Of a stretch of 64,000 nt of DNA, positions 3,317 to 58,729 are shown one piece after another; position 1 is the stretch's first letter, and each line of letters starts with the position of its first letter. The position numbers and the translations under genes are program-made. Below the pieces are notes generated by a model. That model was not told where the DNA came from. It was given only the letters and a program-made list of their open reading frames with translations, and did no database searches. Source of the stretch: an uncultured Bacilli bacterium (GTDB lineage Bacteria; Bacillota_I; Bacilli_A; RF39; UBA660); the NCBI GenBank assembly GCA_934130405.1, contig CAKOXX010000002.1, forward strand, positions 28,100-92,099. The letters are read 5' to 3'.

Positions 3317-3961
3317 ATGTATAAGTATGTAAAACGTGGTATAGATTTAGTAATGGCAGTATTATTATTAATAATTTTCTTAATTCCAATGTTAATCATT
3401 GCGGTATTAATTAAACTTGATAGTAAAGGACCAGTATTATTTAAACAAAAAAGAACAGGGTTAAAAGGTAAGGTATTTAATTTATATAAATTTAGAAGTA
3501 TGGTAACTGATAATGATGTTCACGATTTTAGTAAAGGTGACCAACATACAAAAGTAGGAAACATACTAAGAAAAACTAGTTTAGATGAACTTCCTCAAAT
3601 AATAAACATCTTAAAAGGAGAAATGTCTTTCATTGGTCCTCGTCCTTGGATTACAGATTATTATGATAATATGAATGAAAAACAAAGACATAGAAATGAT
3701 GTTTTACCAGGTATAACTGGATTAGCACAAGCTAAAGGAAGAAATAATATTAGTATTAATGAGAAAATTAATTATGATTTAGAGTATGTTAAAAATTATT
3801 CTTTTAGACAAGATGTAAAAATAGTATTTCTAACTATTAAGACAGTTCTTTCTAAAGAAGGAGCAGATGCTGGTAAAAATACTATTCAAAATGAATTAGA
3901 AGACTTAAAGACACAAAATCTTTCCTTAGATGATATAAGAGAAGCACAAGGTCATATATAG
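3317..3961 (+). CDS. undecaprenyl-phosphate sugar phosphotransferase (small monotopic Bac_transf / PglC-WbaP C-terminal type; priming transferase)
   Basis: single N-terminal TM, KRTGLKGKVFNLYKFRSM and DELPQIINILKGEMSFIGPRP motifs. Confidence 0.85.
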   Translation: MYKYVKRGIDLVMAVLLLIIFLIPMLIIAVLIKLDSKGPVLFKQKRTGLKGKVFNLYKFRSMVTDNDVHDFSKGDQHTKVGNILRKTSLDELPQIINILKGEMSFIGPRPWITDYYDNMNEKQRHRNDVLPGITGLAQAKGRNNISINEKINYDLEYVKNYSFRQDVKIVFLTIKTVLSKEGADAGKNTIQNELEDLKTQNLSLDDIREAQGHI

Positions 3962-4090: not shown

Positions 4091-4930
4091 ATGAAAAAAA
4101 TAAAATTTTCAGTTTTAATGAGTATTTATTATAAAGAAAAGCCAGCAAATTTGAAATTAGCTTTAGATAGTGTTATTAATCAAACGTATAAACCATCTGA
4201 AATTATATTAGTCGAAGATGGTCCACTTACTCAAGAGCTTGATTTATTAATTAATAATTATTGTTTGAAGTATGATTTTATTAAAATTATAAAATTGAAA
4301 AAAAATCAAGGATTAGGCAATGCACTAAATGTGGGATTAAAACATTGCAAATATGAATATGTTGCTAGAATGGATACTGATGATATTTCTTTACCTAATA
4401 GATTTGAAAAACAATTCAAATTTATAGAATCAAATCCAGAATATGATGTGATTGGCTCAAATATAATTGAATTTGATGACTCAACAAATGAGGATATTTC
4501 TGTAAGAAAAGTTCCAGAAATACATGAGGAAATAGTTAGATATTCAAAAAAAAGAAATCCAGTTAATCATGTTAGTGTTACTTTCCTAAAATCTAGTGTT
4601 TTATCAGTGGATAGTTATCAAGACTGTATGTATTTTGAAGATTATTATTTATGGATGCGAATGATAAATCGTGGATTTAAATTTTATAATGTACAAGAAA
4701 ACTTGGTTAGAGTACGCGCTGGATTGAGTTTTAGCAGTAGGAGAGGAAATTTAAAATATATTAAAAATATTATAAATTTTGAAAATAAAGTATTAAAATT
4801 AGGATTAATTCCTGTTCATTTATATTTCTATAATGTCTTTGTTAGAAGTGTTGTTTCATTAATGCCTAATAAATTAAGATATCAGTTGTATCAAAAAAAA
4901 TTAAGAAATGCAAAAATGGAAGTGAAATAA
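4091..4930 (+). CDS. glycosyltransferase family 2
   Basis: FSVLMSIYYKEKPANLKLALDSVINQTY..ILVEDG GT-A N-terminus and DxD-type motif (MDTDD). Confidence 0.8.
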   Translation: MKKIKFSVLMSIYYKEKPANLKLALDSVINQTYKPSEIILVEDGPLTQELDLLINNYCLKYDFIKIIKLKKNQGLGNALNVGLKHCKYEYVARMDTDDISLPNRFEKQFKFIESNPEYDVIGSNIIEFDDSTNEDISVRKVPEIHEEIVRYSKKRNPVNHVSVTFLKSSVLSVDSYQDCMYFEDYYLWMRMINRGFKFYNVQENLVRVRAGLSFSSRRGNLKYIKNIINFENKVLKLGLIPVHLYFYNVFVRSVVSLMPNKLRYQLYQKKLRNAKMEVK

Positions 4931-27398: not shown

Positions 27399-28010
27399 AT
27401 GTTAGAAAATAAATTAGGAATAATTAGTTCAATTGAACTTGCAAATGAAGAAGAAAAAATAACAAAATTAAGAGCACTAGAATTATTTGATACAGGAAAA
27501 CTGCACGAATTAGAAACTGGAAGATTTAATGATCTGGTACTTATTCATAAATTCATGTTTGACGATATTTATTATTTTGCTGGTAAAATAAGAGAAGAAA
27601 ATATTGCTAAAGGAAACTTTAGATTTGCTTCTGCTATGTATCTAGATGAAATTTTAAAAAAAATAGATGAAATGCCTCAAGATACTTTTGAAAATATAGT
27701 TAAAAAATATGTTGAGATGAATATTGCACATCCTTTTAGAGAAGAAAATGGAAGAAGTACTCGTATATGGTTAGATATGATATTAAAAAAAGAATTAAAT
27801 CAGGTGATTGATTGGAGCAAGATAAATAAGAAAGATTATTTACTTGCTATGGAAAGAAGTCCAATAAAAGATTTAGAACTAAGATTATTATTGAAAAATG
27901 CCTTAACTGATAAGATAGACGATAGACAAGTATTTATGAAAGGAATAGATGCAAGTTATCAATATGAAGGTTATGATACCTATTCAATTGAAGAACTTTA
28001 TGATAAATAA
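27399..28010 (+). CDS. Fic/Doc-family protein (class III: C-terminal SxxxEG inhibitory motif)
   Basis: active-site HPFREENGRSTR; C-terminal SYQYEG. Confidence 0.85.
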   Translation: MLENKLGIISSIELANEEEKITKLRALELFDTGKLHELETGRFNDLVLIHKFMFDDIYYFAGKIREENIAKGNFRFASAMYLDEILKKIDEMPQDTFENIVKKYVEMNIAHPFREENGRSTRIWLDMILKKELNQVIDWSKINKKDYLLAMERSPIKDLELRLLLKNALTDKIDDRQVFMKGIDASYQYEGYDTYSIEELYDK

Positions 28011-28126
28011 CCGAATGAATTAATGACATTTAACCGAACAAATTAATGATATTTAACCGAATTTATTGAATTTTATGAAAAATTAATGATATACTAATTA
28101 TATGAAGGGAGGATTAATGAAGTTTT

Positions 28127-29401
28127 ATGAGAGAATATAAATCAAGAATTGCAGATGAAATTTTACAAAAAAAATTAAAAGGAAAAGGCGCAGTATTAAT
28201 TCAAGGACCTAAATGGTGTGGAAAAACAACAACTGCCGAACAAATAGCAGGTAGTATACTTTATATGGCTAATCCAGAAGATAAAAAGCAAAACTTAACT
28301 TTGGCTGATATAAGTCCTAGTTTACTATTAAAAGGAGAAGTTCCAAGACTTATTGATGAATGGCAACTAGCTCCAAAATTATGGGATGCTATTAGGTTTG
28401 AGATAGACCATCGACAAGAAGAAGGACAATTTATTTTGATTGGCTCAGCAGTACCAGCTAATATGGATGATGTTACGCATTCTGGAACAGGAAGATTTTC
28501 TTGGCTTACTATGCGTCCGATGTCTTTATTCGAATCAGGTGAATCAAATGGAGGTGTTAGTTTAGACTCGCTATTCACAAAAAGTGATACTATTTCTGCA
28601 ATAAATGACTTATCACTAGAAGATGTTGCTTATTTGTGCTGTAGAGGTGGCTGGCCAAGAAGTATTTTTATGGAAAAAGAAAAAGCTTTAGAACAGGCTT
28701 TTGACTACTATGATGCAGTTGTTAATTCAGATATTTCTAGAGTAGATGGTGTAAACAGAAATAGTGAACGTGCAAAAAAATTGATGAGAAGCTATGCAAG
28801 AAATATAGGAAGTCAAGCTAATAATGAGACTTTAAAAAATGATATGATTAATAATGACTCATTTTCACTAGATACAGACACGGTATTATCTTATGTAAAT
28901 GCTCTTAAGAAAATATTTGTGATAGAAGAAGTTTCTTCTTGGAATCCAAACTTGAGAAGTAAAATTGCCATAAGAACTTCTGATACTAGATATTATACTG
29001 ATCCTTCCATTGCGGTAGCTGCTCTTGGTATTGGTCCAGATGATTTAATAAATGACCTTAATACGTTTGGTTTAGTATTTGAAAATTTGTGTATTAGAGA
29101 TTTACGTGTTTATGCTGAAAGCATTAATGGTGATGTCTATCACTACAGAGATGCAACTGACTTAGAATGTGATGCTGTTATTCATTTACGTAATGGTTCG
29201 TATGGTTTGATAGAAATTAAGCTTGGTGGTGAACACTTAATTGATGAAGGTGCTAAAAACTTATTGCAATTACAAGATAAGATAGACACTACTAAAATGA
29301 ATAATCCTTCATTTTTAATGGTTTTAACTGCTACAGGTAAATATGCTTATAAAAGGGAAGATGGCATTTATGTAGTACCAATTGGTTGTTTAAAACCATA
29401 A
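28127..29401 (+). CDS. AAA-type ATP-binding protein (COG1373/DUF4143-like)
   Basis: Walker A GPKWCGKTT; size and C-terminal region consistent with the DUF4143 ATPase family. Confidence 0.65.
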   Translation: MREYKSRIADEILQKKLKGKGAVLIQGPKWCGKTTTAEQIAGSILYMANPEDKKQNLTLADISPSLLLKGEVPRLIDEWQLAPKLWDAIRFEIDHRQEEGQFILIGSAVPANMDDVTHSGTGRFSWLTMRPMSLFESGESNGGVSLDSLFTKSDTISAINDLSLEDVAYLCCRGGWPRSIFMEKEKALEQAFDYYDAVVNSDISRVDGVNRNSERAKKLMRSYARNIGSQANNETLKNDMINNDSFSLDTDTVLSYVNALKKIFVIEEVSSWNPNLRSKIAIRTSDTRYYTDPSIAVAALGIGPDDLINDLNTFGLVFENLCIRDLRVYAESINGDVYHYRDATDLECDAVIHLRNGSYGLIEIKLGGEHLIDEGAKNLLQLQDKIDTTKMNNPSFLMVLTATGKYAYKREDGIYVVPIGCLKP

Positions 29402-29403
29402 AT

Positions 29404-29445
29404 TATAATTAAAAAACAGGGCTAGAAGTTATCTAACTCTGTTTT
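29404..29445. terminator. weak bidirectional terminator-like hairpin between convergent genes
   Basis: AAACAG..CTGTTTTTTT. Confidence 0.25.
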
Positions 29446-30254
29446 TTTCTTGTTATATGATAAATAATTCTAACAATAATACCAGCAATGATAAATGTAA
29501 ATCCTAGAAAATAAATCTTACTAGACATATCCAAAATAACTGTTTTAATTACCGAAGAAACATTATCACTCCAAAAGAGAATATTCTTAACATCAATCTT
29601 GTTGAATAGTAAATAATTACCTAAAACTAATAACTCACCAGCACTAGCAAGTGGAATAGTAGCTACATTTTTCTTATAAAAGAAGTGACCAAATATTAGT
29701 AAAAGTAGAGTAGTGATACCTAAGACTATGATTGAAATATCAACTAATTTTACAATCTTTACTAAATAAATACTGAAATTATTAATCTTGGTACTGATAA
29801 TTATTTCATTTGTATAAATCTCTAACATTTGATTAACAAATAAATCCAAAGCTTCTGTTTCTGTTACTACAATATTATGTCTTATTAAATAATTATTAAT
29901 ATTATTCTCTAAATTAGCTTTAACACTATTAGTATCAACACTAACTTCTTTATTATCATAGAAAGCATAGATAGCATTATTTAAACTAGTTCTAATATCT
30001 TCCTTTGTATAGATATCCGTTAAAACTTCATTAGTAAGACCAGACTGGATAAGATAGTTTTGCATTTCTTCATTGATAGAATTATAAACTTTATCATAAT
30101 AATTTATCTTTTTTAAATTATCTATAATATAATCTGGTTTTAGAATAGTTAGTTTCATAGTAAAGATAAGTGTTATACCTAGTACAATAACAGTTAGTAA
30201 TAACAGATAAAAGTAAAATGATAACATCTTTAATTTTTTACTCATAAGTAGCAC
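29433..30254 (-). CDS. hypothetical membrane protein (273 aa), last gene of the sortase operon
   Basis: N-terminal and C-proximal TM helices; overlaps the sortase gene end. Confidence 0.5.
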   Translation of the reverse strand: MLLMSKKLKMLSFYFYLLLLTVIVLGITLIFTMKLTILKPDYIIDNLKKINYYDKVYNSINEEMQNYLIQSGLTNEVLTDIYTKEDIRTSLNNAIYAFYDNKEVSVDTNSVKANLENNINNYLIRHNIVVTETEALDLFVNQMLEIYTNEIIISTKINNFSIYLVKIVKLVDISIIVLGITTLLLLIFGHFFYKKNVATIPLASAGELLVLGNYLLFNKIDVKNILFWSDNVSSVIKTVILDMSSKIYFLGFTFIIAGIIVRIIYHITRKKQS

Positions 30255-31537: not shown

Positions 31538-34500
31538 ATGAATTTAACATATAAAGAATTTTTAAAGTTATTATCAGAAAATACAAGAGAGTATATCGAA
31601 AATGTTATGAATGAGTTATATTATTATGAAAGGTTATCAACTACTAGTGATAATAATCGTTATTTCAATATAATAAGAGCATGTTATATCGGCATGGAAA
31701 AGGATATAGCATATACTGACTTTATAAAAAAGATGAAGTTTGATAGTAGTAATATAGATAATTCTTCTAAATCTCGTATTTATTATGATTTTAAAAAAAT
31801 TCCTGCTTCGTCTAAGGAGGAATTATTTAGAAAATATAATAGTTTTTTCATTTTGCAGGATAGTATTGAAAACTCTAAGTACTTTCAATATTTAAAACCT
31901 AGTGAAATTTTATATGATGCAGTAAAAAACTTTATTGTACGTTGTAACTATAAGGAGGACTACGCCTTTTCTAGGGTAGTTGGAGTAGAAAAAAATAGTG
32001 ACTATCTTGATTTAGTCAGCGAGTTAGTAAAAAGAGATAGGGAACAAGTTAATGTTCAACTTGAAAGAGAACTTTATAAAGATTTAAATTATGAAGTTAT
32101 TTCTTTTGTTGAATGTGCTAGTAAAATAAGAAATAAATTAAGTATATGTTTAGAAAGAAATGTTATTAGGGAAAGTAATTACATTAGAGATACAAGTGAT
32201 TATTTAACACCTTTATCACTATTTCTAGCGATTTTTGAATATGATGGCAAGAAAGTGAATGCTATAGAAAAGATATTTAATGATAAAGGAATAACTCTTT
32301 TTAAAATATATAAAGCTTTAGGAAAGAATCTTAGTAAAGAAATAAAAGAAGAAAAGAAAGATATTCGTGTTATTGATAAATTTTATAGACCATATTTAGA
32401 TAAACATATTAGTGAGTTAGTAAAGAAACTATTTAATAAGGAGTTAGTACCGAATAATTGTGTAGAAAAGTTTATTTCTCAATTTGATGTTGAAGCTTTA
32501 GATATAGTTGACTTGCGAGAATCATTGTTTGCACTTGATGAATTTGATGAGAAACAATTTGATGAATTCTATCATAAGTTAAAACTCCAAACTAAAATAT
32601 CTTTAAATGATACTGCCAAAATATATCAACTATTATTAACACAACTAGATAGTAATTTCTTACTAACTTCTACTGATGATATTGATACTTTAGCTATTTT
32701 AATTTCTTCTTATTATCATAATGGTATAGTTAGTGAATATTTTAAAGATAACGGTATTGCGCTTGAAAATATTTTAGATTTGTTAAATATTAATATCACT
32801 AAAGAAGAACTTAAAAACGTTGCTGTTGATAAAAAAGTATTTATGAAGAAATTTAAGAGACTTATTGTAGATGGTGTTAATAGTGATAGAGATATTTCTA
32901 AAGTTACTCCAACAGATTTTGAGAAGAATTTATGTAATCAAAATTTTAACAAGACAAATATTGTTCAAGGAATATTTGAAAACTTTACCGGTAAGGGGTT
33001 ACCATCTAACTTTATTAAAGAGTTAGATGATTATATTGTTACTAAAAGAAAAGAAAACGCTAAAAAGGAACTAGTTGAATACTTAGAAGAAAAAAACATA
33101 GAAGACGTTGATTTTCTCTTTAAAGTATTAGATGCTTATGAACATTTCCTTTTGAGTAATACTTCTTCCAGTAAAAGACTATTAATGGAAGCAAGTATTA
33201 TTACTGCCTTTGGTATGACAGATATTGGTTCAAAGTATTTAAGTCTGATTCATTTTGATTATGAAAAATTTTTAGTACAAGCTAATATTAAAAATGAAAA
33301 AGTAGAATCAACTGAACTTAGAGATTTAGCTTTCAAAGAAAATCTAGAACCATTTATTAATAATAATGATACAACACTTAGTATTACAGTAAATCTGCTT
33401 AAGAGTCCTGATATTTCTCCTGAAGTTAAAAAGTTTATAGATGATATTAAATATGAAGTTTTAACAGAAGAAGAATTCTATTATCAACAAGAAATAAATG
33501 TAAAAACGAGTGAAGTTAAGGAAAGATTAAAGGAAAATTTGTCAGAAGATATGTTAGGTTTTATTGAATCATCTTTTTGGTATTATCCAAGATTAAGAAT
33601 AGTAGAAGATAGTTGTGATAGAAAATGTATGAGTTTATTCCTAGGAATTATGTCTTCTTTAAAAACCAAAGTACTATTTGAAAAGTATGGTTTTGATTGT
33701 AAAAAAATAATTGATGACTTTGTTGCTGATAGTCCAACATCTAAACAAGTTGCTGATAATCTGTATCTTGATTTTGAATTGTTTTCTAAAGAAAAATTAT
33801 CAGATATTACAATTATTAATGATTTATTTGCAAATAATTATATAAAAAGATTATGTGAAAAAAATAATATATCAATTTATAATTTGGAATATGAATTGCT
33901 TTTAAAAACTGGCAAGTTAGGTAGCCTTAGTATTCCTGAGAAAAAACAATTATTAGAAGCAACCGAACTACCAAGTGTTAATCCATTTAATAATAGTAGT
34001 TTAATTAATTATTCGAATGTCTTAAGTTTTCATTCAAAAAGCATTGAAAAACCATATCAAGAACTTTTAAGTTCTAACTCTATTTCTACTGCTACTAATA
34101 TGATACATGATACGATAAATGATTTATATAAAGAGCAAATAGAGAAGCCAAGTTTCTTTCAACAATTATTTTCACTCATACAAGAAGAAGATAAAGATAT
34201 TGTTTATAATAAAGAAGCAATGATAAAACTTAGAGAAGAATTAGATAAACAAAGTGACAATTTAGAAAAAGAGATTAAAACTTATGCTGAACTAATCGAC
34301 TATATGAAAGCTTTCTATAAGAAGAATGAAGATAGAATAGTAGAGATGGATAGCAAGATGAGAGTAGTTGAAGATTTACAAAATAGTGAAGAAGATGATG
34401 ATACTTTTGGGTTAATTAAATATCAAAGTACTCTAAATATCATGTCTTCTTATAAAAACTCTTTTGTTACTACTGGTAATCTTTGCAAAGCTGAGATAAT

Positions 34501-34843
34501 TAGAGTTTATAATTCGATTGTAAGTCACTTTATGGTTCTTAATTCGATTAGAACTACTAAAGAAGTTTTAGTTCCAATTATTGAATCAGAAAGTATTATT
34601 AGTAAAGGAATAGAAAATGAAAAAGATATTATTGGAGTTATTCATGAGATATCTGATTTATTTAATAATATGGTTGAAAATAATACTGAAGGAATAAGTG
34701 CAAACTTAGCAAAACTAGATAATTTATCCGTTGATAATTATGCTTCTTTAACAAATGGTATAAATAAATTTTTAGAAGATACTTCTAATCTTTCTAGTAG
34801 TAGTGATAAAATAAAAGTAAAATTATATAAGAAAGAGGATTAA
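31538..34843 (+). CDS. large hypothetical soluble protein (1101 aa), no recognisable motif
   Basis: uninterrupted ORF, no TM or signal peptide, no Walker, HATPase or nuclease motifs seen. Confidence 0.6.
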   Translation: MNLTYKEFLKLLSENTREYIENVMNELYYYERLSTTSDNNRYFNIIRACYIGMEKDIAYTDFIKKMKFDSSNIDNSSKSRIYYDFKKIPASSKEELFRKYNSFFILQDSIENSKYFQYLKPSEILYDAVKNFIVRCNYKEDYAFSRVVGVEKNSDYLDLVSELVKRDREQVNVQLERELYKDLNYEVISFVECASKIRNKLSICLERNVIRESNYIRDTSDYLTPLSLFLAIFEYDGKKVNAIEKIFNDKGITLFKIYKALGKNLSKEIKEEKKDIRVIDKFYRPYLDKHISELVKKLFNKELVPNNCVEKFISQFDVEALDIVDLRESLFALDEFDEKQFDEFYHKLKLQTKISLNDTAKIYQLLLTQLDSNFLLTSTDDIDTLAILISSYYHNGIVSEYFKDNGIALENILDLLNINITKEELKNVAVDKKVFMKKFKRLIVDGVNSDRDISKVTPTDFEKNLCNQNFNKTNIVQGIFENFTGKGLPSNFIKELDDYIVTKRKENAKKELVEYLEEKNIEDVDFLFKVLDAYEHFLLSNTSSSKRLLMEASIITAFGMTDIGSKYLSLIHFDYEKFLVQANIKNEKVESTELRDLAFKENLEPFINNNDTTLSITVNLLKSPDISPEVKKFIDDIKYEVLTEEEFYYQQEINVKTSEVKERLKENLSEDMLGFIESSFWYYPRLRIVEDSCDRKCMSLFLGIMSSLKTKVLFEKYGFDCKKIIDDFVADSPTSKQVADNLYLDFELFSKEKLSDITIINDLFANNYIKRLCEKNNISIYNLEYELLLKTGKLGSLSIPEKKQLLEATELPSVNPFNNSSLINYSNVLSFHSKSIEKPYQELLSSNSISTATNMIHDTINDLYKEQIEKPSFFQQLFSLIQEEDKDIVYNKEAMIKLREELDKQSDNLEKEIKTYAELIDYMKAFYKKNEDRIVEMDSKMRVVEDLQNSEEDDDTFGLIKYQSTLNIMSSYKNSFVTTGNLCKAEIIRVYNSIVSHFMVLNSIRTTKEVLVPIIESESIISKGIENEKDIIGVIHEISDLFNNMVENNTEGISANLAKLDNLSVDNYASLTNGINKFLEDTSNLSSSSDKIKVKLYKKED

Positions 34844-35306: not shown

Positions 35307-36925
35307 ATGGAATATTGGAATTTATTTGATTATGAAGGTAAAAAAAGAAAAAGCTAGCTATTAGGGGAACAAAACTAGCCGATGATGATTTTCATTTAGT
35401 AGTAAATGTTTGGATAATGAATGATAATGGAGAATTTTTAATAACACAAAGAGCAGTCAATAAAAGCCACCCGCTTATGTGGGAATGTACAGGTGGCTCT
35501 AGTTTAATTAATGAAAACTCTAAACAAGCTGCTATACGGGAAGTAAAAGAAGAATTAGGAATAGATATTTCTAAAAGTGAAGGAACGTTAATAGGAAGAA
35601 CAAGAAGATATTATGCTAATTGTCCAGATATCTTAGATGTTTGGTTATTTAAAAGTAATATTTCCTTAAAAGAAGTTGTTATTCAGAAAGAAGAAGTAAA
35701 TGATGTTATGTTTGCTTCTCGTGAAAAAATAAAAGAGTTATTTGATAATGGTCAATTTGAAGCTAATGCTTTATTTAATAGAGTAGTTGATATTGAAAAT
35801 AAAAGTGAAGTTTACTATGTAGGATTTAATGCTAATAATGCTATTTGTAATGAGAATTTCTTTTCATCCATAACACTTAATCCAAATAGAGAAAAAGGAA
35901 ATATTTATTATAAAGAAGAAACTATTGAAGACAAAAATTCTGATAGCTTTCTTAAAGAATATAAAAACTTTCTTATTGAAACAATGACTAATCTTACTAG
36001 AAAAAATGCTAATACTATATTTCTTGCTTTTAATAAAAAAATTAATAACTTGTTAAAGAATCAGAAACAGTTTAATATTATTCACGATAATTATGAATTA
36101 TTAGATAAACTTAATAATAAAAAATTCGCAAGGGAATTAGTAAAAAGTGATGTTCCTGTTATTAAAACTTGTTTTATTGAAAAGAATATATCTTATGAAG
36201 AAGCAACTAGATTAATTAAAAGTAAAAAAATAGTTATTCAAGGAAAAACTGGAGCAGGTGGAAATAATACTTATTATGTAGATGATTTTGAAAAATTCAA
36301 CAAGTATAAAGAAAAGTGTGATAATAAGTATTTTCTTTCAAAATATATTAAACATTTACCTGTTAATATTACACTAGTAATTGGTAAATATGAAACGATA
36401 AGTTTGCCACTTTCTGTTCAATTAATTAAACTTACTGATGATAGATTTAAATATGTTGGAGCAGATTTTATTTATTCCCAAACATTAAATAATACTGTAA
36501 CTGCCAAAATAAGAGATTATACTAGTAAAATTATTAAAAAATTAAAAGAAATTGACTATAAAGGAATTGTTGGAATAGATTATGTTATCGATTCTAATGA
36601 TAATGTTTATTTTATGGAACTTAATCCAAGGTTTCAAGCTTCATCATTTATTATTAATAAATATCTAGAAAAATATTGTTCAACTTGTTTAGCTGAATTA
36701 CATTATTTAGCTATTACTGATAAATGTATTGGTAATAATTACTTAGATAAAATTGATAAAAGTTTTGTGAATTGTTATAATTCAAAAGATTATGACGAGT
36801 ATAAATATGCTAAAAGAGTAGTTAATGGTTATTATGCTAAAAATAAAGATTCTTATTATCGAAAGGTATTTAATTATTCAATATTAAAAAATAGTGAGTT
36901 TGAAAAACGTGCAAAAGATATGTAA
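35307..36925 (+). CDS. NUDIX hydrolase fused to ATP-grasp ligase domain; N-terminus disrupted by a frameshift in an A7 tract (35340-35346)
   Basis: Frame A gives MEYWNLFDYEGKKRKS-stop. The -1 frame continues KKKLAIRGTKLADDDFHLVVNVWIMNDNGEFLITQR into the NUDIX box GGSSLINENSKQAAIREVKEELGI. C-terminal ATP-grasp motifs GIVGIDYVIDSNDNVYFMELNPRFQASS. The track ORF starts only at 35417. Confidence 0.6.
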
Positions 36926-38739: not shown

Positions 38740-38915
38740 AATAATGACTATTTACAAACTTCAATTTGTAGAGTAGGTGAAAAAACTATACAGGCTTAGG
38801 AAGACAACTTAGCTCTTTCCGACGATAAATAAGTTAAAAAATTATCAAAACTTTATAATGTTATAAAAAATTACTTATTGAGTTTATGTAAGTAAGTTAA
38901 GGAGTAGTGATTTTA

Positions 38916-39611
38916 ATGAAACAAAATTTTATATGTCCATTTTGTGGTTCTTCAGTACCAATTACTTTTGATACTGAAAGAAAAGAATTAATCTATTTTG
39001 GACACGATCAACATAATATGAATGATAGTCGTCCAAAGTATAAAAATGTTTTTGAAATATACATACATCACTGTCCAACCTGTGATAATGTTAATTTTGT
39101 TGCTGAAGGGAAATCCAATCTTAAAGGAATAAAAATACCTATGTATCCTAAATCACTTGCAAAACAATTTCCAAGTTTTATCCCCAAAGCTATAATAGAA
39201 GATTATGAAGAAGCATATTCAATATTGTCATTAAGCCCTAAGGCTTCTGCAACTTTAAGTCGAAGATGTCTGCAAGGAATGATTAGAGATTTTTGGAAAG
39301 TAAATGTTAAATCTGGAAAGTTATATGATGAAATAAATGCAATTAAAGATAAAATTACACCAGCACAATGGAAGGCAATTAACTCTCTTCGTTCTCTAGG
39401 CAATATAGGCGCTCACATGGAGAAAGACGTTAATGAAATTATAGAAATTGATGATGGTGAGGCTGAAAAACTTATAAAACTTATTGAATTATTAATGGAA
39501 AAATGGTACATAGCAAGGCACGATGAAGAAGAACTATTAAATGAAATAGTTGAAATTAGAAATGAAAAAAGTAATAAAAAGACAACTAAACAATTAGAAT
39601 CACAACTATAA
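38916..39611 (+). CDS. DUF4145-like protein with N-terminal zinc ribbon
   Basis: CPFCGS...HHCPTCDN; C-terminal LRSLGNIGAHME matches the R..GN.aAH core of DUF4145; ATG 38916 (track GTG 38907). Confidence 0.5.
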   Translation: MKQNFICPFCGSSVPITFDTERKELIYFGHDQHNMNDSRPKYKNVFEIYIHHCPTCDNVNFVAEGKSNLKGIKIPMYPKSLAKQFPSFIPKAIIEDYEEAYSILSLSPKASATLSRRCLQGMIRDFWKVNVKSGKLYDEINAIKDKITPAQWKAINSLRSLGNIGAHMEKDVNEIIEIDDGEAEKLIKLIELLMEKWYIARHDEEELLNEIVEIRNEKSNKKTTKQLESQL

Positions 39612-39745
39612 AATAATCTATTATATTAGGTTATTTTTCTTTTTTTGAATAGAAAATTTACTTTGCAAATAGAAGTTTACAAAGAAGAGGGTTGTAAATA
39701 GTCTTTTTCTTGTTATATAATTAGGTGAAAGATTTAAGAAGGTTG

Positions 39746-42274: not shown

Positions 42275-45200
42275 ATGATGCGGAAGAAAATATTTTTTGT
42301 TTTTTGTTTATTATTAACAGGATTTTTTCTAAATGTTAAAGCTCTTAATAATACACTTTTAAATGTTGATTTTCCTAGGAATAATGCTAGTTTAAGTGAT
42401 GAATTACTAGTACAAGGTTGGGTAATGAGTGAAGTTGATAATAAAGTTTCAATAAGCATTGATGATAAAAAGATAGATTCATTGATAAATCGTAATGAAA
42501 GAATAGATGTCTTAAATGCTATTCCAGGTTATGGGGGAAAGAATAATAAAACACCAGGCTATCAGACCTTTATAGATCTTAGTAACTATAATTATGGAGA
42601 GCATACCGTTACTATAGAAGTATTAAACTCCCAAGATAAAGTAATTGCCAAAGAACAGAGAAAAATTAATATTGCTGCTCCAGCCACTCTTTTAAATGTT
42701 GATTTTCCTAAGAATAATGCTAGTTTAAGTGATGAATTACTAGTACAAGGTTGGGTAATGAGTGAAGTTGATAATAAAGTTTCAATAAGTATAGATAATG
42801 AAAAGATAGATTCATTGATAAATCGTAATGAAAGAGTAGATGTGTTAAATGCTATTCCAGGTTATGGGGGAAAGAATAATAAAACACCAGGCTTTCAAAG
42901 CTTTATAGACATTAGTAACTATAATTATGGAGAACATATTGTTACTATAGAAGTATTAGATTCTGATAATAAAGTGATTATGAAAGAGCAAAGGAAAATT
43001 AATATTTCAGCACCAAAAACATTATTAAATGTTGATTATCCAAGAAACAACAATACATATAAAGATAGTATTTTTGTCCAAGGTTGGGTAATGAGCGAAT
43101 TAACTGACTTTGAAATGGAAGTATTTCTAGATCAAGAAAAAGTAGATGCGTCCATTTTAAGATATGCAAGAGAAGACGTTACTGCTTCAATTAAAGGCTA
43201 TGGAACAGAAAACGTTAATCCTGGTTTTACAACAATCATTGATACTGCTAATATATCTGATGGAGAACACACCTTAAGTATAAAAATAAAAAATAAAGAT
43301 AAAGTAGTTGCAGAAAAAAACATAGCTATCAAAATAGAAAAGTATGTTGCTTTTCTAAATGTTGATTTTCCAGTACAAGAAAAAAATGAGTATTCCAGTT
43401 TGTTTGTTCAAGGCTGGGTAATGAGTGATGATCAGGAAGGAAAATTAAAGTTTTTTATTGATAATAATGAAGTAACTAGCGATATTTTAAAATATGCAAG
43501 AGAAGATGTAGTTAACAATATTAAAGGTTATGGTGGAAAATCTAATCTTAGTCCTGGTTTCACAACTGTTATTGATTTAACATCATATTCATATGGTGAA
43601 CATACCCTAAAAGCTTTATATTATAATAGAAATGACGAAGTAATTGCTACTGCTTCTAAAAAAATTAAGATAATAAAACCCAAAACACTTATTAACCTAG
43701 ACTTTCCTAGTAATAATCAGACAGTAACAAGTGAAGTTTATTTAAATGGTTGGATGTTGAGCGAAGATGCTAAAACAAGTCTAGAAGTGTTAGTAGATGA
43801 TACTAAAGTAGAAACATCAATAGAAAGAGTAGCAAGAGATGATGTTATTTCTGTAATAAAAGGTTATGGTGGAAGAGAAACTAACCAGACACCAGGTTAT
43901 CTTGCTAAACTTGATTTTGGTAATTTATATGATGGAAAACATAATATAACGATAAGAGCAGTAGATTCTCATGGAACAGTAGTTAGTGAAGTTAAGAGAA
44001 AAGTTATTTTGAAAAAATATGATACAAAAGTAGATATTTTTACTCCAAAGGAAAGTGAAGTAACAAAATTATCAATGAATATTACAGGTAAAGTAACTAC
44101 TACTGCCATTAATACAGAAATAGAATTTCTTGTTGATGATAAAAAACTTGCTTCTGGTTTATCTAATAAAGATGGGTTATTTAATGTGACAGTTGACACT
44201 AGTAATCTAACTGATGGTCTACATTTGTTAAAGATTAAACTTCTAACAAAACATCTTGATGAAACTATTTATGAAGTAACAAGAAAAATTACTATAAAAA
44301 AATATGATGGGATAATTACACTAGATTTTCCTAGTAGTGGTTCTTTAAATAAAAATAACGACATATTTGTTCGTGGCTGGGAAATGAGTGAAGATATTAA
44401 TAGTAAGATAAGAGTTTATTATGATGATAGCGAAATTACTGATGTTATTAGAACAGAACGAGGTGATGTGTTAGATTTAATAACTTCTTATGGTGGAAGA
44501 GAAACTAACCAAACACCAGGTTTTCAAACCATAATACCAAGTAAATTATTAACACTTGGTTATCACAATATTACTATTAAATTGTATAATTCTTTTGATG
44601 AACTTATCAGAACATATGAAAAAAAAGTATATATATATGATAAAATGAAATTAGGAATTGATGTCTCACAATATAATGGAAATATTGACTGGACTTCTGC
44701 AAGATATAGTGGAATGGTTGAGTTTGCTTTTATTAGGCTAGGTTTTAGAGGTTATGCTCCTCTTGGTAAATTGGTTACAGATACAAAATTTGTTAATAAT
44801 GCGACGACTTCAATTAAAAATGGCATCACTACGGGAATTTACTTTTTTAGTCAAGCAACTTCCTATGAGGAAGGTAAAAGTGAAGCTGAATATGTTAAAA
44901 ATGTTTTAGCACTTAACCCTTTTATCGCCTCTAACTTAAAATTACCTATTGCTTTTGATGTTGAATATTCAACTGAACCTTCTCATAATGGTAGAGCTGA
45001 TAATATCTCAAGAGAAGCTAGAACAGAAGCTATTAGAGGATTTGTCGAAACAATGGAGAAGTATGGCCTTTCCTCAGTTATTTACATTAATAAAGACTTT
45101 CTTTTCAATAAAGTAGATACCAACAAAATCAGTAATTATGAAATTTGGTTAGCTCATTGGACCTATGATTATAATAATAAGAGTGACTATACTGCACCTT

Positions 45201-49012: not shown

Positions 49013-51124
49013 GTGAATGAAAAGATGAAAAGAGAACAAATAGAGAGAATATATATAATTATTTTACAAATATTACTAGCATATTTAAGTTCTGTTTATA
49101 TTGTAAATGATAATATAAATTTTTCAACAATCTTTAAAGTGGACTTTTTCCTCTTTTTACTACTTTTTCTTTTCTTTTTCTTTATTGCTTCTCACTTTAT
49201 GTTTGGTATCAAAAAAGTATATAATTTCTTGTATGAAAAAAGATATATAATTGCTTCCTTAATATTTGTAATATTAGTATTAGGAAAATTTAATGGAAGT
49301 AGTTATGGAATGTGGGATAATTATGTAGAACCAAATTATAAAGTTACTTCTTTTACTCCTTTAATCGGAAGTGCTAGGGGAATAAGAAGTGATGAATGGT
49401 TAGTAAATTCATCATATGTTTTATCTCAAACTAAAACAGGATATAATTATTTCAATCCAGTTATGCGGGCAACAGACACCGATGTTTTTGCTACTATTCC
49501 TGTTCCAGTCAAAAGTATCTTATGCATTGGAAAACCATTTTTAATAGGCTATTTATTCTTTGGCCGTGATTATGGTATGTCAATTTACTGGTATGGAAGA
49601 TTAATTGCTCTTTTTATGGTAAGTTTTGAATTTCTTTTACTACTTACCAAAAAGAATAAGATTGCTTCTTTAATTGGTACCTTACTAATCACTTTTTCCG
49701 CTCCCGTATTTTGGTGGTATTCAGCACAATTAGTAGAAATGTTAATTAGTGGTAGTTTATGTATAATTTTTTTCTATCATTTTTTAAATGCTAATTCGGA
49801 CAAAAAGAAAATCTTGTACTCCATACTTCTCATTCCCACATTCTTTAGTTATGTTGTAACACTATATCCTGCTTGGTTAGTTCCAATTAGTTATCTTTAC
49901 TTGATACTGGCTATCTATTTCTTTATCGAACATAAAGATAAACATAAATATAAAATCAAAAACTTATGGCCACTTGCTATTACAGTTTTTGGTATAATGT
50001 TATTATTTCTTTATTTCTTTTTCTTAAGTAAAGATACATTTAAACAATTAATGTCAACGGTATATCCAGGAGCTAGATTTATAGTAGGTGGTAAATCATT
50101 TGAAAACTTCTTAACATATGCAGCTAATATTTATTTTCCCTACTATGATGTTGGTAATCCTTGTGAATATAGTACCTTTTATTCATTTTTTCCTTTCTCA
50201 ATAATTATTGGTTCATATTATATTTTTAAGAAGAGAAAGAACTTAAAAAATGATGTTTTGATTGTTTCTATATTTTCATTAATAGTTGTTTATTTATTAT
50301 TTGCTTTTTTATCTTTTCCTAAAATCTTAGCTAAAATAACCTTATTATATATGGTTCCAGTAGAAAGATTAACAGTTATTATTTCTTATTTATGTGTTAT
50401 CTTAATGGTCTTACTATATGATAAAATGAAACTTACTGATAAAAAAGAAAAAATAATTTTTATAGTGATAGCTATTGTAAGTAGTTTGTTTAGTAGTATT
50501 ATAGCTCAAAAAATGTTACCAGATAATTATTTATCAAATACTAAAATGTTTGTTTCTTTTGCTATTTTAGCAGTTATAAGTATTTTATGGATAATTAAAA
50601 ATAAAAAAACTAGGACTTGTCTTTTAGTTCTTATCCTATTAATAACAACAGTATCAACTATTTCTGTAAATCCTCTAATGAAAGGCTTTTCTGGTGTATA
50701 TGAAAAACCTATTGCCAAAGAATTAAAGAAATATAAAAATAAAAATGCTAATTGGGTATCATTTGATTCATTTATAATTGCTAATTATTTAGGAACGCAA
50801 GGTTTAAAAGTTTTAAACAGTACCAACTTATATCCTAATATTAATTTGTGGAAGAAGATAGATTCAAGTGGAAAATACAGTGAAGTTTATAATAGATATG
50901 CTCATATAGATATGGAATTAGATTCAGAAAATACCGAATTTAAACTGTTGGCATCTGATCACTTTAAATTAAAAATTACTCCAAATGATTTGTGTAAACT
51001 AAAAGTTAAATATGCAACTTCACTAAAAGAACTAGACGATTACAATAATGATGATGTAACATTTACTTCTAAATATCATAAAGATAATATTTATATATAT
51101 AAAGTTAATTGTATGGGAGAGTAG
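49013..51124 (+). CDS. large polytopic membrane protein (703 aa), putative GT-C-type glycosyltransferase; paralog of 56660-58729
   Basis: more than 12 TM helices; shared GIRSDEW/Y motif and collinear architecture with the paralog. Confidence 0.45.
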   Translation: MNEKMKREQIERIYIIILQILLAYLSSVYIVNDNINFSTIFKVDFFLFLLLFLFFFFIASHFMFGIKKVYNFLYEKRYIIASLIFVILVLGKFNGSSYGMWDNYVEPNYKVTSFTPLIGSARGIRSDEWLVNSSYVLSQTKTGYNYFNPVMRATDTDVFATIPVPVKSILCIGKPFLIGYLFFGRDYGMSIYWYGRLIALFMVSFEFLLLLTKKNKIASLIGTLLITFSAPVFWWYSAQLVEMLISGSLCIIFFYHFLNANSDKKKILYSILLIPTFFSYVVTLYPAWLVPISYLYLILAIYFFIEHKDKHKYKIKNLWPLAITVFGIMLLFLYFFFLSKDTFKQLMSTVYPGARFIVGGKSFENFLTYAANIYFPYYDVGNPCEYSTFYSFFPFSIIIGSYYIFKKRKNLKNDVLIVSIFSLIVVYLLFAFLSFPKILAKITLLYMVPVERLTVIISYLCVILMVLLYDKMKLTDKKEKIIFIVIAIVSSLFSSIIAQKMLPDNYLSNTKMFVSFAILAVISILWIIKNKKTRTCLLVLILLITTVSTISVNPLMKGFSGVYEKPIAKELKKYKNKNANWVSFDSFIIANYLGTQGLKVLNSTNLYPNINLWKKIDSSGKYSEVYNRYAHIDMELDSENTEFKLLASDHFKLKITPNDLCKLKVKYATSLKELDDYNNDDVTFTSKYHKDNIYIYKVNCMGE

Positions 51125-55599: not shown

Positions 55600-56640
55600 A
55601 TGGCACAAAAAAAATTAAGTATTATAGTACCTTGCTATAAAGTAGAAAAGTATTTACCAAGATGTCTTGATTCATTAGTTAATCAAACTCTTGAAGATAT
55701 AGAAATTATTTGTATTAATGATGGTTCACCTGATAATTGTTTAAAGATACTAAAAGAATATCAAAAGAAATATAAAGATAAAATAGTTATTATTGATAAG
55801 AAAAATGAAGGCGTTTGGCGTGGCAGAAAAGATGGTATTAAAAAAGCTACTGGTGAATTTATTGGTTTTGTAGATAGTGATGATTATGTAGATGTTACTT
55901 TTGCAAAGAAATTATATAGTAAAGCCAAAAAAGAAAATGCTGATATAGCAGTTTGTGGATTTGATAGAATTGATTTGGATACTGGAAAACGTTTTTCAAG
56001 AGAAATGTGCAAGAGTGAAGATAAGGTTATAGATATATTAAAAGATCCAGGACCTCTATTAGAAATGAATGGAGCACCTTGGAATAAGATATATAAAGCA
56101 AATTTATTAAAAGAACAAGCAGATTTAGAGCATCCTCCTCGAATATTAGATGATATGATGTTTTTACTACTTATTTATATAAATGCTAAAAAGGTAGTAT
56201 TTGTAAATGAAAGTTTAGTTTTTTATATGGTAAGACAAGGTTCAATCATAACATCTATTAAAAAAGAACAAGTTGAATCTACCTACCAAGCAATGATAGA
56301 AGTAAGAAAAGTATACGAAAATAGTGAAAATAGAGTAAGAATGTTGCCACTTTTAGATGCTATGGCTTTTCTACATTTAGGTGTTTCTTTAATGTTTAGA
56401 TTATCTTATGATAAAAATTGTAAGTTGAAAGAAGCAGTTAAAGAAAATAGTGAATTTTTAGATAATTATTTTCCAACTTGGCGATATACTAAATTTGTTA
56501 AGTTAGGATATGTTATTAAAAATCATGTTAATTTTAAACTTTGGATTATAAAGATAGTGTATAAGTTACATTTATTTAGAGCCTTCTTAGCAATTTATCG
56601 TTTTATGATAGATAAACTACATATTGATATTAAATGGTAG
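55600..56640 (+). CDS. glycosyltransferase family 2
   Basis: LSIIVPCYKVEKYLPRCLDSLVNQTLEDIEIICINDGSPD. Confidence 0.8.
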   Translation: MAQKKLSIIVPCYKVEKYLPRCLDSLVNQTLEDIEIICINDGSPDNCLKILKEYQKKYKDKIVIIDKKNEGVWRGRKDGIKKATGEFIGFVDSDDYVDVTFAKKLYSKAKKENADIAVCGFDRIDLDTGKRFSREMCKSEDKVIDILKDPGPLLEMNGAPWNKIYKANLLKEQADLEHPPRILDDMMFLLLIYINAKKVVFVNESLVFYMVRQGSIITSIKKEQVESTYQAMIEVRKVYENSENRVRMLPLLDAMAFLHLGVSLMFRLSYDKNCKLKEAVKENSEFLDNYFPTWRYTKFVKLGYVIKNHVNFKLWIIKIVYKLHLFRAFLAIYRFMIDKLHIDIKW

Positions 56641-56659
56641 TACTACTTTAGAGGTTTTT

Positions 56660-58729
56660 ATGTTAAAAAAATACAAAGAAATTGCTGAAGTATTGTTATC
56701 AATTATTTGTTATTATATAGCTTTATTACCAATATATTTAAAATATTCTCAAAAGTTAGTAGTAGTTTTATTAGGAATTATTGGTTCAATAGTTTTATTA
56801 GTTGATTTTTTTAATCACAAAAAGGTAAAGAAAGTTTGCAATTTTATTATAGATAAGAGATATTTTATTGCTACTATAGTTTTTATTATTTGTCTGGTTT
56901 TTAAGTTACATACATCATCAATTGGTTGTTATCACTACTTATTTAAAGATGAAGCTAATAAAGTTGAAGCTACTACCATATTGGGAATGAGTAGGGGAAT
57001 TCGCTCTGATGAATATATGGTTCACACACCCTATTACTTTTCTCAATATTATAATAATTATAAAAAAATTAGTAAGCAGATGAGCTTAACTGGTCAAGAT
57101 ATGATTATAGGTTATAATGCTCCTGTTAAAGATATTAGTTTATTAGCTAAACCATTAACTTGGGGTTATGTTCTATTAGGAAATGAATATGGTTTATCAT
57201 GGTATTTCTCTTTGAAAATAATTTTACTAATACTAATTTCGTATGAATTTGTAATGATACTCACCAAAAATAATAAGAAAGTATCTATTATGGGAACGTT
57301 ACTAATTTCTTATTCTCCAGCTATTCAGTGGTGGTTTGTGCCTCATATGGCCGATGTATTTTTATGGAGTATGGCCTTATGTGTTATTGCTTATCACTTT
57401 TTTACGACTAACAAAAGATGGCTTAAAAATCTTTTAACTATTATAGCTCCCTTAGTTTTATCTGTTTTCGTTTTAGCTTTATTCCCATCTTGTCAAATTC
57501 CCTTAGGAATTATTGCTTTTTGCTTATTTGTGGGAGCACTTGTTAGAGATAAAGAAAAGATAAATTTTGAGAAGAAAGATATATTTAGAATTTTATTTAT
57601 ATTCTTAGTAGCTATCATTATTTTAAGTTATAGCTTACTAACCTCTTTAGATGCTATTAAACTACTATATGATACTGTTTATCCAGGAAAAAGAGTTTCT
57701 CTAGGAGGGCAATATACCTTTAGAAATCTATTTACTAATTTAACAACTTTATTTTTACCATACAAAGAAAGTAATGTTTTAAATAATTGTGAAGTGAGTG
57801 ATTTCATTCATATTGTAATACCCTGTGTTATTATTTTCCCTTTTATATATAAAAGGTTAAAAGAAGAAAAAGATTCTAATTTAATTATTGGAAAGATTAT
57901 TTTTATATCTTTAATTATTGAAGTAGTATTTATGTTAGTTGGTTTCAATGAGTTACTTGCTAAATTAACTTTATTTTCTTATATAAATAGAATGGAACTA
58001 GTATATGGTTTTACATCGGTACTATTTTCTTTATGGACTATATCTATTCTATGGAAGTATAAAGATATTTTATCGATGAAAATTAAAATTTTTTCTATAT
58101 TGATATTTATAATTGGTTATTATTTAACTATTACACAGCAAAATATTGAGTATTTACCAATTTACGTGTACTTGCTTGAAATATTAGCTTTTTCAATTTT
58201 AGTTTTTTCGATTTATCAAATAAAGCAAAAAAATTCTATTCTAATACTATTTTTCATCTTAGTAGTGTCTTCTTTTACAATTAATCCTATTGCATATGGT
58301 ACGACTGCTATTACTGATTATGAATTAATATCAGCAGTAAAGAAGACAATCACTAAGAACAATCAATATGTTTTAGCAACTGATTCTTTGCAACTGCAAT
58401 CATTATTACTTGCTAATGGTCTAAAAACTATTAATGGTGTTAATTTTTATCCAGATTTAAAAAAATGGAAATTAATTGATCCTAAAGAAGAATATAAAGA
58501 TATTTATAATAGATATTATCATACTGAGGTAAGACTTACTGATAAAAAGACCAATTTTGAGTTAAAACAAGCAGATATGTTTATTTTAAATCTTAATATT
58601 TTAGATATTAAGAAATGGCCTGTTAAAACTATAGTTTCAGGAAAATCATATGATGATTTATTTAAACAAGCAAATATCAAGTTCCAAAAGAAAAAAAGTA
58701 TGGGTTATTTTATCTATATTTTAGAGTAA
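56660..58729 (+). CDS. large polytopic membrane protein, paralog of 49013-51124 (putative GT-C glycosyltransferase)
   Basis: ATG 56660 with AGAGG SD; GIRSDEYMVHTPYYFSQ versus GIRSDEWLVNSSYVLSQ in the paralog. Confidence 0.45.
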   Translation: MLKKYKEIAEVLLSIICYYIALLPIYLKYSQKLVVVLLGIIGSIVLLVDFFNHKKVKKVCNFIIDKRYFIATIVFIICLVFKLHTSSIGCYHYLFKDEANKVEATTILGMSRGIRSDEYMVHTPYYFSQYYNNYKKISKQMSLTGQDMIIGYNAPVKDISLLAKPLTWGYVLLGNEYGLSWYFSLKIILLILISYEFVMILTKNNKKVSIMGTLLISYSPAIQWWFVPHMADVFLWSMALCVIAYHFFTTNKRWLKNLLTIIAPLVLSVFVLALFPSCQIPLGIIAFCLFVGALVRDKEKINFEKKDIFRILFIFLVAIIILSYSLLTSLDAIKLLYDTVYPGKRVSLGGQYTFRNLFTNLTTLFLPYKESNVLNNCEVSDFIHIVIPCVIIFPFIYKRLKEEKDSNLIIGKIIFISLIIEVVFMLVGFNELLAKLTLFSYINRMELVYGFTSVLFSLWTISILWKYKDILSMKIKIFSILIFIIGYYLTITQQNIEYLPIYVYLLEILAFSILVFSIYQIKQKNSILILFFILVVSSFTINPIAYGTTAITDYELISAVKKTITKNNQYVLATDSLQLQSLLLANGLKTINGVNFYPDLKKWKLIDPKEEYKDIYNRYYHTEVRLTDKKTNFELKQADMFILNLNILDIKKWPVKTIVSGKSYDDLFKQANIKFQKKKSMGYFIYILE

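Follow-up and report, generated by a model that had tools for sequence, protein, structure and literature searches.

A private A8-to-A7 change splits a conserved NUDIX–ATP-grasp gene in an uncultured gut Bacilli genome and is probably a slippage deletion

Phase-variable homopolymeric contingency genes are known from Campylobacter, Haemophilus, Neisseria and Mycoplasma, among others, where they include genes for surface structures. Null alleles and pseudogenes that arise when replication slips in a homopolymer are likewise of a well-known kind. Programmed -1 ribosomal frameshifting at A_AAA_AAG has been described for dnaX and for IS3-family elements (PMC5009743; PMC1851650), and in an E. coli over-expression vector the heptamer C_AAA_AAA was found to shift the frame by -1 at a level of 25-60% (PMC1851650). 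A frameshift in poly(A) can in principle also be corrected in some transcripts by RNA polymerase slippage, as in the A9 tract of Thermus dnaX, in IS elements and in endosymbiont genes; nine is the run length from which many bacterial genomes begin to show selection against A/T runs prone to slippage (PMC1088944).

We analyzed a gene encoding a NUDIX–ATP-grasp protein that is interrupted at a run of seven A in a stretch of 64,000 nucleotides from an uncultured Bacilli bacterium (the whole of this stretch is called the window below). The locus resembles each of the systems above in some respects. As in contingency genes, the run stands early in the coding region, surface-polysaccharide genes adjoin the gene, and a change of ±1 toggles the frame (open with A8, broken with A7). 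Like dnaX and the IS3-family elements, it offers an A-rich slippery stretch, decoding by tRNA-Lys and two frames that a -1 shift would join, and, as in transcriptional-slippage rescue, some transcripts might in theory escape the poly(A) frameshift. With homopolymer frameshift null alleles and pseudogenes it shares the loss of one base from poly(A) within a coding region, an early stop and intact relatives; from these we found no essential difference, except that several other independent lesions are present here in the same gene of the same species.

The frame that opens at ATG 35307-35309 (frame 0) contains 16 codons, MEYWNLFDYEGKKRKS, and ends at the stop codon TAG 35355-35357; its codons are ATG GAA TAT TGG AAT TTA TTT GAT TAT GAA GGT AAA AAA AGA AAA AGC TAG. 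The A7 run occupies 35340-35346 and is followed by G and then by AAAAAG. The -1 frame (frame 2) is closed by TAA at 35339-35341, is open from there to the stop at 36923-36925, and reads KKKKLAIRGTKLADDDFHLVVNVWIMNDNGEF...; its earliest start codon is ATG 35417, which opens an ORF of 502 amino acids. When one A is added to the run, the two frames fuse into a single protein of 539 amino acids, in which a NUDIX domain (residues 29-143) and an ATP-grasp_3 domain (residues 282-446) are recognized by Pfam and in which ATG 35417 corresponds to residue 38. The 502-residue ORF thus begins inside the NUDIX domain, as the initial annotation had claimed. The features of the gene are as follows, all on the plus strand.

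35307-36925, plus strand: whole NUDIX–ATP-grasp gene, frameshifted here; 539 amino acids if the run were A8, 99% identical to the database protein P0001 over its full length
35307-35357, plus strand: upstream frame-0 fragment of 16 codons with the true start codon and the premature TAG; residues up to the frame change, MEYWNLFDYEGKK, identical to the P0001 N-terminus
35339-35345, plus strand: T_AAA_AAA, the sole slippery heptamer that shares the phase of the upstream frame, as read from the sequence
35340-35346, plus strand: A7 homopolymer, the place of the one-nucleotide loss; A8 in 22/22 conspecific assemblies that cover the site
35390-35734, plus strand: NUDIX domain PF00293, residues 29-143 of the restored protein (Pfam E = 1.3e-11, above the curated cut-off)
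35417-36925, plus strand: residual 502-amino-acid ORF from the first in-frame ATG, without the first three NUDIX beta-strands and without a preceding Shine-Dalgarno-like sequence
35495-35563, plus strand: intact Nudix box, G-x5-E-x7-R-E-V-x-E-E-x-G-I, a motif read from the sequence
36149-36643, plus strand: ATP-grasp domain PF02655 (ATP-grasp_3), residues 282-446 (Pfam E = 6.3e-15)

The restored protein is 99% identical to P0001, a protein in public data, over 100% of the length, and about 70 other proteins of 524-549 amino acids are 45-72% identical to it over essentially the whole length. In an alignment of 42 homologues, E2, W4, L6, R20, G21, L24, H30, V32, N34 and W36 are invariant, and all of these residues lie upstream of residue 38. 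Because of the full-length identity to P0001 and the invariance of these N-terminal residues, the match of the upstream segment is not attributable to chance, and on this comparison the segment beginning MEYW is the true N-terminus of the gene. The two proposals made earlier, that the short frame at ATG 35307 is a NUDIX N-terminus and that a -1 change of frame at the A run divides one gene, are therefore borne out, the former by the invariance of E2, W4 and L6 and the latter by the near-identical full-length protein that one added A restores.

An AlphaFold model built on the homologue alignment (mean pLDDT 92.7) places beta-strands at residues 3-7, 13-19 and 29-38, and the block-mean pLDDT over residues 1-40 is 90-96. 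A sequence search of the PDB aligned isopentenyl-diphosphate isomerase-type NUDIX proteins with the restored protein from residues 9-21 onward. According to the model, a product begun at 35417 would lack three conserved N-terminal NUDIX strands. Membership of the NUDIX superfamily is indicated by a Pfam score of 45.1 bits against a cut-off of 21.1 and by a Nudix box that matches GX5EX7REUXEEXGU as G64-x5-E70-x7-R78-E79-V-K-E82-E83-L-G85-I86, in which R78, E79, E82, E83 and G85 are invariant in the homologue alignment; in these respects the window gene is like the MutT and IDI-like NUDIX hydrolases. The ATP-grasp domain scores 56 bits against a cut-off of 23.2, and a Foldseek search with the model, in which this fold is predicted with high confidence, returned the ATP-grasp enzymes PurK, biotin carboxylase and L-amino-acid ligase (E = 1e-15 to 1e-13), the probability for PurK and biotin carboxylase structures being 1.00. 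The PDB sequence search, NCBIfam and Foldseek yielded nothing beyond generic NUDIX and ATP-grasp matches, and a limited search of the PDB, NCBIfam and the literature found no characterized protein with a NUDIX–ATP-grasp fusion.

To place the run in its lineage, we compared it between strains and species. Two contigs that encode P0001 (L001 and L002) match the window at 98.8-99.2% identity across 8-18 kb and read GGT AAA AAA AAG AAA AAA CTA at the site, which is A8 and in frame. A JGI contig (L086) combines A8 with the window's own neighboring AAAAAG single-nucleotide variant. The contig L106 is 99.88% identical to the window over 6 kb, with 6 mismatches and one gap, the gap being the A run itself, where L106 has A8. 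Another contig (L107) has 1 mismatch to the window in 5.1 kb; it begins downstream of the A run and so leaves the site uncovered. Altogether, A8 with intact reading through the site was present in 22/22 conspecific assemblies, a count of the conspecific loci that cover the run and a between-strain comparison of assemblies. About 70 orthologous loci of other species likewise remain, without exception, in frame here, and conservation of the A8 run does not extend to them; the nearest species (70-72% identity) have GGA AAG AAA AAG AAA AAG. A pattern scan of metagenomes for A5-A12 alleles gave one contig, with A8, from JGI data in which the species is sparsely represented. The in-frame orthologues that the initial annotation had proposed to look for are thus present throughout; they do not start at the position equivalent to 35417, they conserve the upstream MEYW segment, and the split of the window gene stands. 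Since all 22 conspecific assemblies have A8 and the orthologues are in frame, the window allele is, as judged from these alignments, a derived and private A8→A7 deletion.

Homopolymers were then surveyed across the window and its relatives. The window (26.8% GC) contains 101 A/T runs of at least 7 nt, 21 of them A8 and 5 of them T8, and no run of A or T longer than 8 occurs in the whole window (1-64000). An order-3 Markov model expects about 15 runs of A9 or longer, and 0/200 simulations had none. An A run is extended with a probability of about 0.43 at lengths up to 7; the value is 0.26 for the step from 7 to 8 and 0 for the step from 8 to 9. Long homopolymers are sharply avoided in the window, and A8, the longest class tolerated, is presumably also the most slippage-prone. 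For 38 A/T runs of at least 7 nt, comparison with 37 conspecific loci (229 kb aligned, 310 run-by-locus comparisons) revealed a single ±1 length difference, that of the run at 35340-35346, which was seen in the window only. Neither A9 nor a second A7 allele was seen in the 22 other assemblies, and the window parts examined showed no further split gene. As a separate observation, at window position 29444, within a minus-strand ORF (29433-30254), L001 and L002 carry an 11-bp tandem duplication that is absent in the window; it alters the last codons of this 270-275-amino-acid ORF, which has no family match and adjoins a sortase gene.

The same gene is interrupted by other means in conspecific strains. 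The end of an IS3-family element is joined to it at 35359/35360 in L083 and L084, and at 35992/35993 in seven contigs (L087-L093) from six samples (ENA, Logan). This element is about 1.4 kb long and encodes a 168-amino-acid OrfA with an HTH_Tnp_1 domain and a 269-amino-acid OrfB with an rve domain, between ends that read TGAACCCC...TTGGACA; no copy of this end occurs in the window. Its coordinates in the contigs, with the equivalent window junctions, are as follows.

L083, 1-75: element end, junction at window 35359/35360
L084, 1-138: element end, junction at window 35359/35360
L087, about 118-1557: element, junction at window 35992/35993

In L087 the far flank of the element is unrelated DNA, and a deletion or rearrangement may be involved. 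Codon 43 is changed from GAA to a TAA nonsense codon in L103 (3088-3090) and in L102, the latter also having a 1-nt deletion at nucleotide 706 of the gene, outside any long homopolymer, and this lineage looks like one in which the gene is progressively decaying. The flanking genes are intact in these conspecific loci. Among nine alleles only, pN/pS was 0.36 for the NUDIX–ATP-grasp gene and 0.08 for rfbB. Several apparent lesions were set aside: a 502-amino-acid protein (P0131), considered as a second A7 allele, is due to an IS junction that follows the run at a distance of 13 nt; an apparent gene split in L111 reflects a gap of Ns in the scaffold; and junctions in L094 and L095 (window 36317/8 and 36062/3) were not counted, having 1.4-2.7x coverage and unrelated flanks that may be chimeric. 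Outside the species, an orthologue in another Bacilli MAG (L017, 9x coverage) shifts frame twice, at A9 and A6 runs (3777-3790 and 4115-4118), and is annotated by NCBI only as a 320-amino-acid 'NUDIX domain-containing protein'; this is either a homopolymer-associated break or an error. The several independent disrupted alleles suggest that in some hosts the gene can be spared or carries a cost. It is not generally dispensable, being well conserved and intact across species.

To search for the setting in which the gene is found, we examined its genomic context. Related contigs are labelled uncultured Bacilli, 'Mycoplasma sp.' or Clostridium sp. CAG:710, which suggests the RF39-like lineage, and stem from gut metagenomes of humans (e.g., Hadza), goats and rabbits. 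Upstream of the gene are a 1101-amino-acid ORF without a family match and then a receiver-like ORF of 145 amino acids, whose product is indexed in 550 blocks of the public collection. The 1101-amino-acid ORF (31538-34843, plus strand) has no match in Pfam, NCBIfam or PADLOC; it is conserved and intact in conspecifics and was not detected by tblastn in the upstream flank of the nearest species. Downstream of the gene are rfbB and a cell-wall polysaccharide locus of about 23 kb, and candidate defense regions (27399-29410 and 38759-39675) flank the locus. These neighbors include the following.

37004-60357: cell-wall polysaccharide locus with rfbB, a GDSL/acyltransferase pair, a TagGH-like ABC transporter, three GT2 genes, Glf and DUF6020
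42353-43099: internal repeats of a 1001-amino-acid GH25 wall protein
49013-51124 and 56624-58729: two paralogous DUF7657/DUF7654 proteins
27399-28010: Fic, candidate defense gene (PADLOC PDC-S04, E = 2.5e-96)
28127-29401: 424-amino-acid AAA_14/DUF4143 ATPase, candidate defense gene (PADLOC PDC-S01, E = 3.5e-62)
38907-39611: 234-amino-acid DUF4145 protein, candidate defense gene (PADLOC PD-T7-4, E = 2.9e-14)

The AAA_14/DUF4143 and DUF4145 genes are insertions relative to the conspecific contig L001. A PADLOC match of the NUDIX domain itself to the defense family PDC-S07 (E = 8.7e-13) was rejected as generic NUDIX similarity, and a phage origin of the DNA was rejected after a search of a phage collection gave only a 60-nt match at chance level. 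Orthologues of 48-63% identity lie in a different, conserved cassette (L007, L008, L009, L011, L014, L015 and L019; about 3 kb on each side). There, a GT4 glycosyltransferase (with an APH-like kinase domain fused or next to it) and a guanylate-kinase-like P-loop protein accompany the NUDIX–ATP-grasp gene, together with a UvrD-like helicase. The GT4/APH-like kinase has weak GT4-conflict and TCAD9 matches. The cassette suggests a nucleotide- or sugar-nucleotide-linked pathway.

Programmed or transcriptional slippage, phase variation and a homopolymer sequencing error had been offered, with no choice among them, as causes of the split. That programmed -1 ribosomal frameshifting or transcriptional slippage is the normal route of expression for this gene appears extremely improbable. 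The slippery site of the 'A AAA AAG' type that had been claimed for it, the heptamer at 35341-35347, is in phase with the downstream frame and not with the upstream one, in which (GGT AAA AAA AGA AAA AGC TAG) there is no canonical X_XXY_YYZ heptamer and only the non-canonical T_AAA_AAA. A -1 slip on the latter would indeed yield the exact wild-type peptide, and the frameshifting of C_AAA_AAA in E. coli (PMC1851650) provides an analogy; however, conspecific and orthologous loci alike keep the frame, the run lacks conservation, and the 84 nt downstream of it contain no stimulatory structure, folding no better than shuffled sequences (MFE -11.8 kcal/mol, shuffles averaging -10.25, z = -0.66). Nor does a Shine-Dalgarno-like stimulator lie upstream at proper spacing, the only such sequence being GAAGG, which directly adjoins the run. 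The locus thus differs from dnaX and the IS3-family elements in the phase of its A_AAA_AAG, in structure, in conservation and in an ancestral state that is a plain in-frame gene, and from cases of transcriptional-slippage rescue in that its run, at 7 nt, is short for efficient RNA polymerase slippage when compared with the nine at which selection becomes evident (PMC1088944), in a window that avoids runs of at least 9. Given the in-frame relatives, the lack of structure in those 84 nt and the out-of-phase heptamer, programmed frameshifting is not supported. Phase variation, in which A8 would be a contingency tract switching the gene on (A8) or off (A7 or A9) and so altering a cell-surface or a conflict and defense function, also seems very improbable, if slightly less so. 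It accords with a run at the 5' end of the coding region that is specific to this species, with a gene that sits beside a large polysaccharide locus and candidate defense genes, and with the repeated inactivation of that gene in the population. Unlike the tracts of contingency genes, however, this one is short and typical of its genome, where 8 is the maximum length and none of the other A8 runs varies, and its length is not polymorphic among the 22 other assemblies; the remaining null alleles, by IS insertion and nonsense mutation, are irreversible and fit gene loss rather than a switch. Slippage as a designed means of expression is thus left without support, phase variation is weak at best, and a one-off loss of an A is what remains.

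Such a loss could have occurred in the cell or in the consensus sequence. An error, by which one A was dropped from a true A8 and an intact gene, is possible but in our view unlikely: a single base in a homopolymer is the commonest class of consensus error, the species is known from metagenome assemblies only, and A7 was seen in the window alone while even near-identical strains have A8, an absence from the 22 other assemblies that is also what a one-off error would produce. Against an error, no gene is split at the other 100 A/T runs of at least 7 nt in the window parts examined, and no other run differs in length from its relatives, from which it follows that the platform was not error-prone at homopolymers. 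The truncated product is moreover on record, since three contigs from two sources (NCBI and ENA) carry the exact 502-amino-acid sequence, which is P0121 in the public collection, although all three may stem from one sample. The gene has also been broken by other routes in other strains, through lesions that homopolymer errors do not explain, while its flanking genes are intact there and its pN/pS exceeds that of rfbB. We consider it probable that the change is a real, private and non-programmed A8→A7 slippage deletion that leaves a null or leaky allele, and judge a real deletion to be about twice as likely as an assembly error.

If the deletion is real, slipped-strand mispairing during replication would be the most likely cause, dropping one A from the A8 tract at codons 12-14. 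Translation from the true start at 35307 would then end after 16 codons, and initiation at ATG 35417 would give a product without the three conserved N-terminal strands of the NUDIX domain. The allele would be null, or hypomorphic if rare -1 slippage restores wild-type protein at a low level. Rescue of this kind might occur through a -1 slip of tRNA-Lys on T_AAA_AAA, which would give exactly the wild-type GKKKKKL, or through RNA polymerase stuttering on A7, and some leakiness is conceivable by analogy with the systems above. We infer all three elements of this course: the biological origin of the deletion, its effect on the protein, and the leaky rescue.

These observations have a direct consequence for annotation. 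The 502-amino-acid ORF from ATG 35417 should not be taken as a native, N-terminally short protein; the gene model should instead begin at 35307, end at 36925 and include a frameshift in the A run, the protein being 539 amino acids long in every relative examined. The event itself, a homopolymer frameshift, is of a well-known kind and has no bearing on any new recoding mechanism. If the deletion is real, the strain would be without, or have very little of, a conserved NUDIX–ATP-grasp enzyme. A further reading is one that we regard as doubtful: inactivation of the gene would be adaptive and would recur in this common, uncultured gut Bacilli species, with A8→A7 as the one reversible, possibly leaky member of a series of independent knock-outs (two IS3 junctions, a nonsense codon and a second deletion). 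If true, the recurrent inactivation would point to a function in conflict or surface modification that is costly and under fluctuating selection. The cluster of lesions across strains hints that loss of the gene is tolerated or favored in some hosts, and could help to assign a function to this family.
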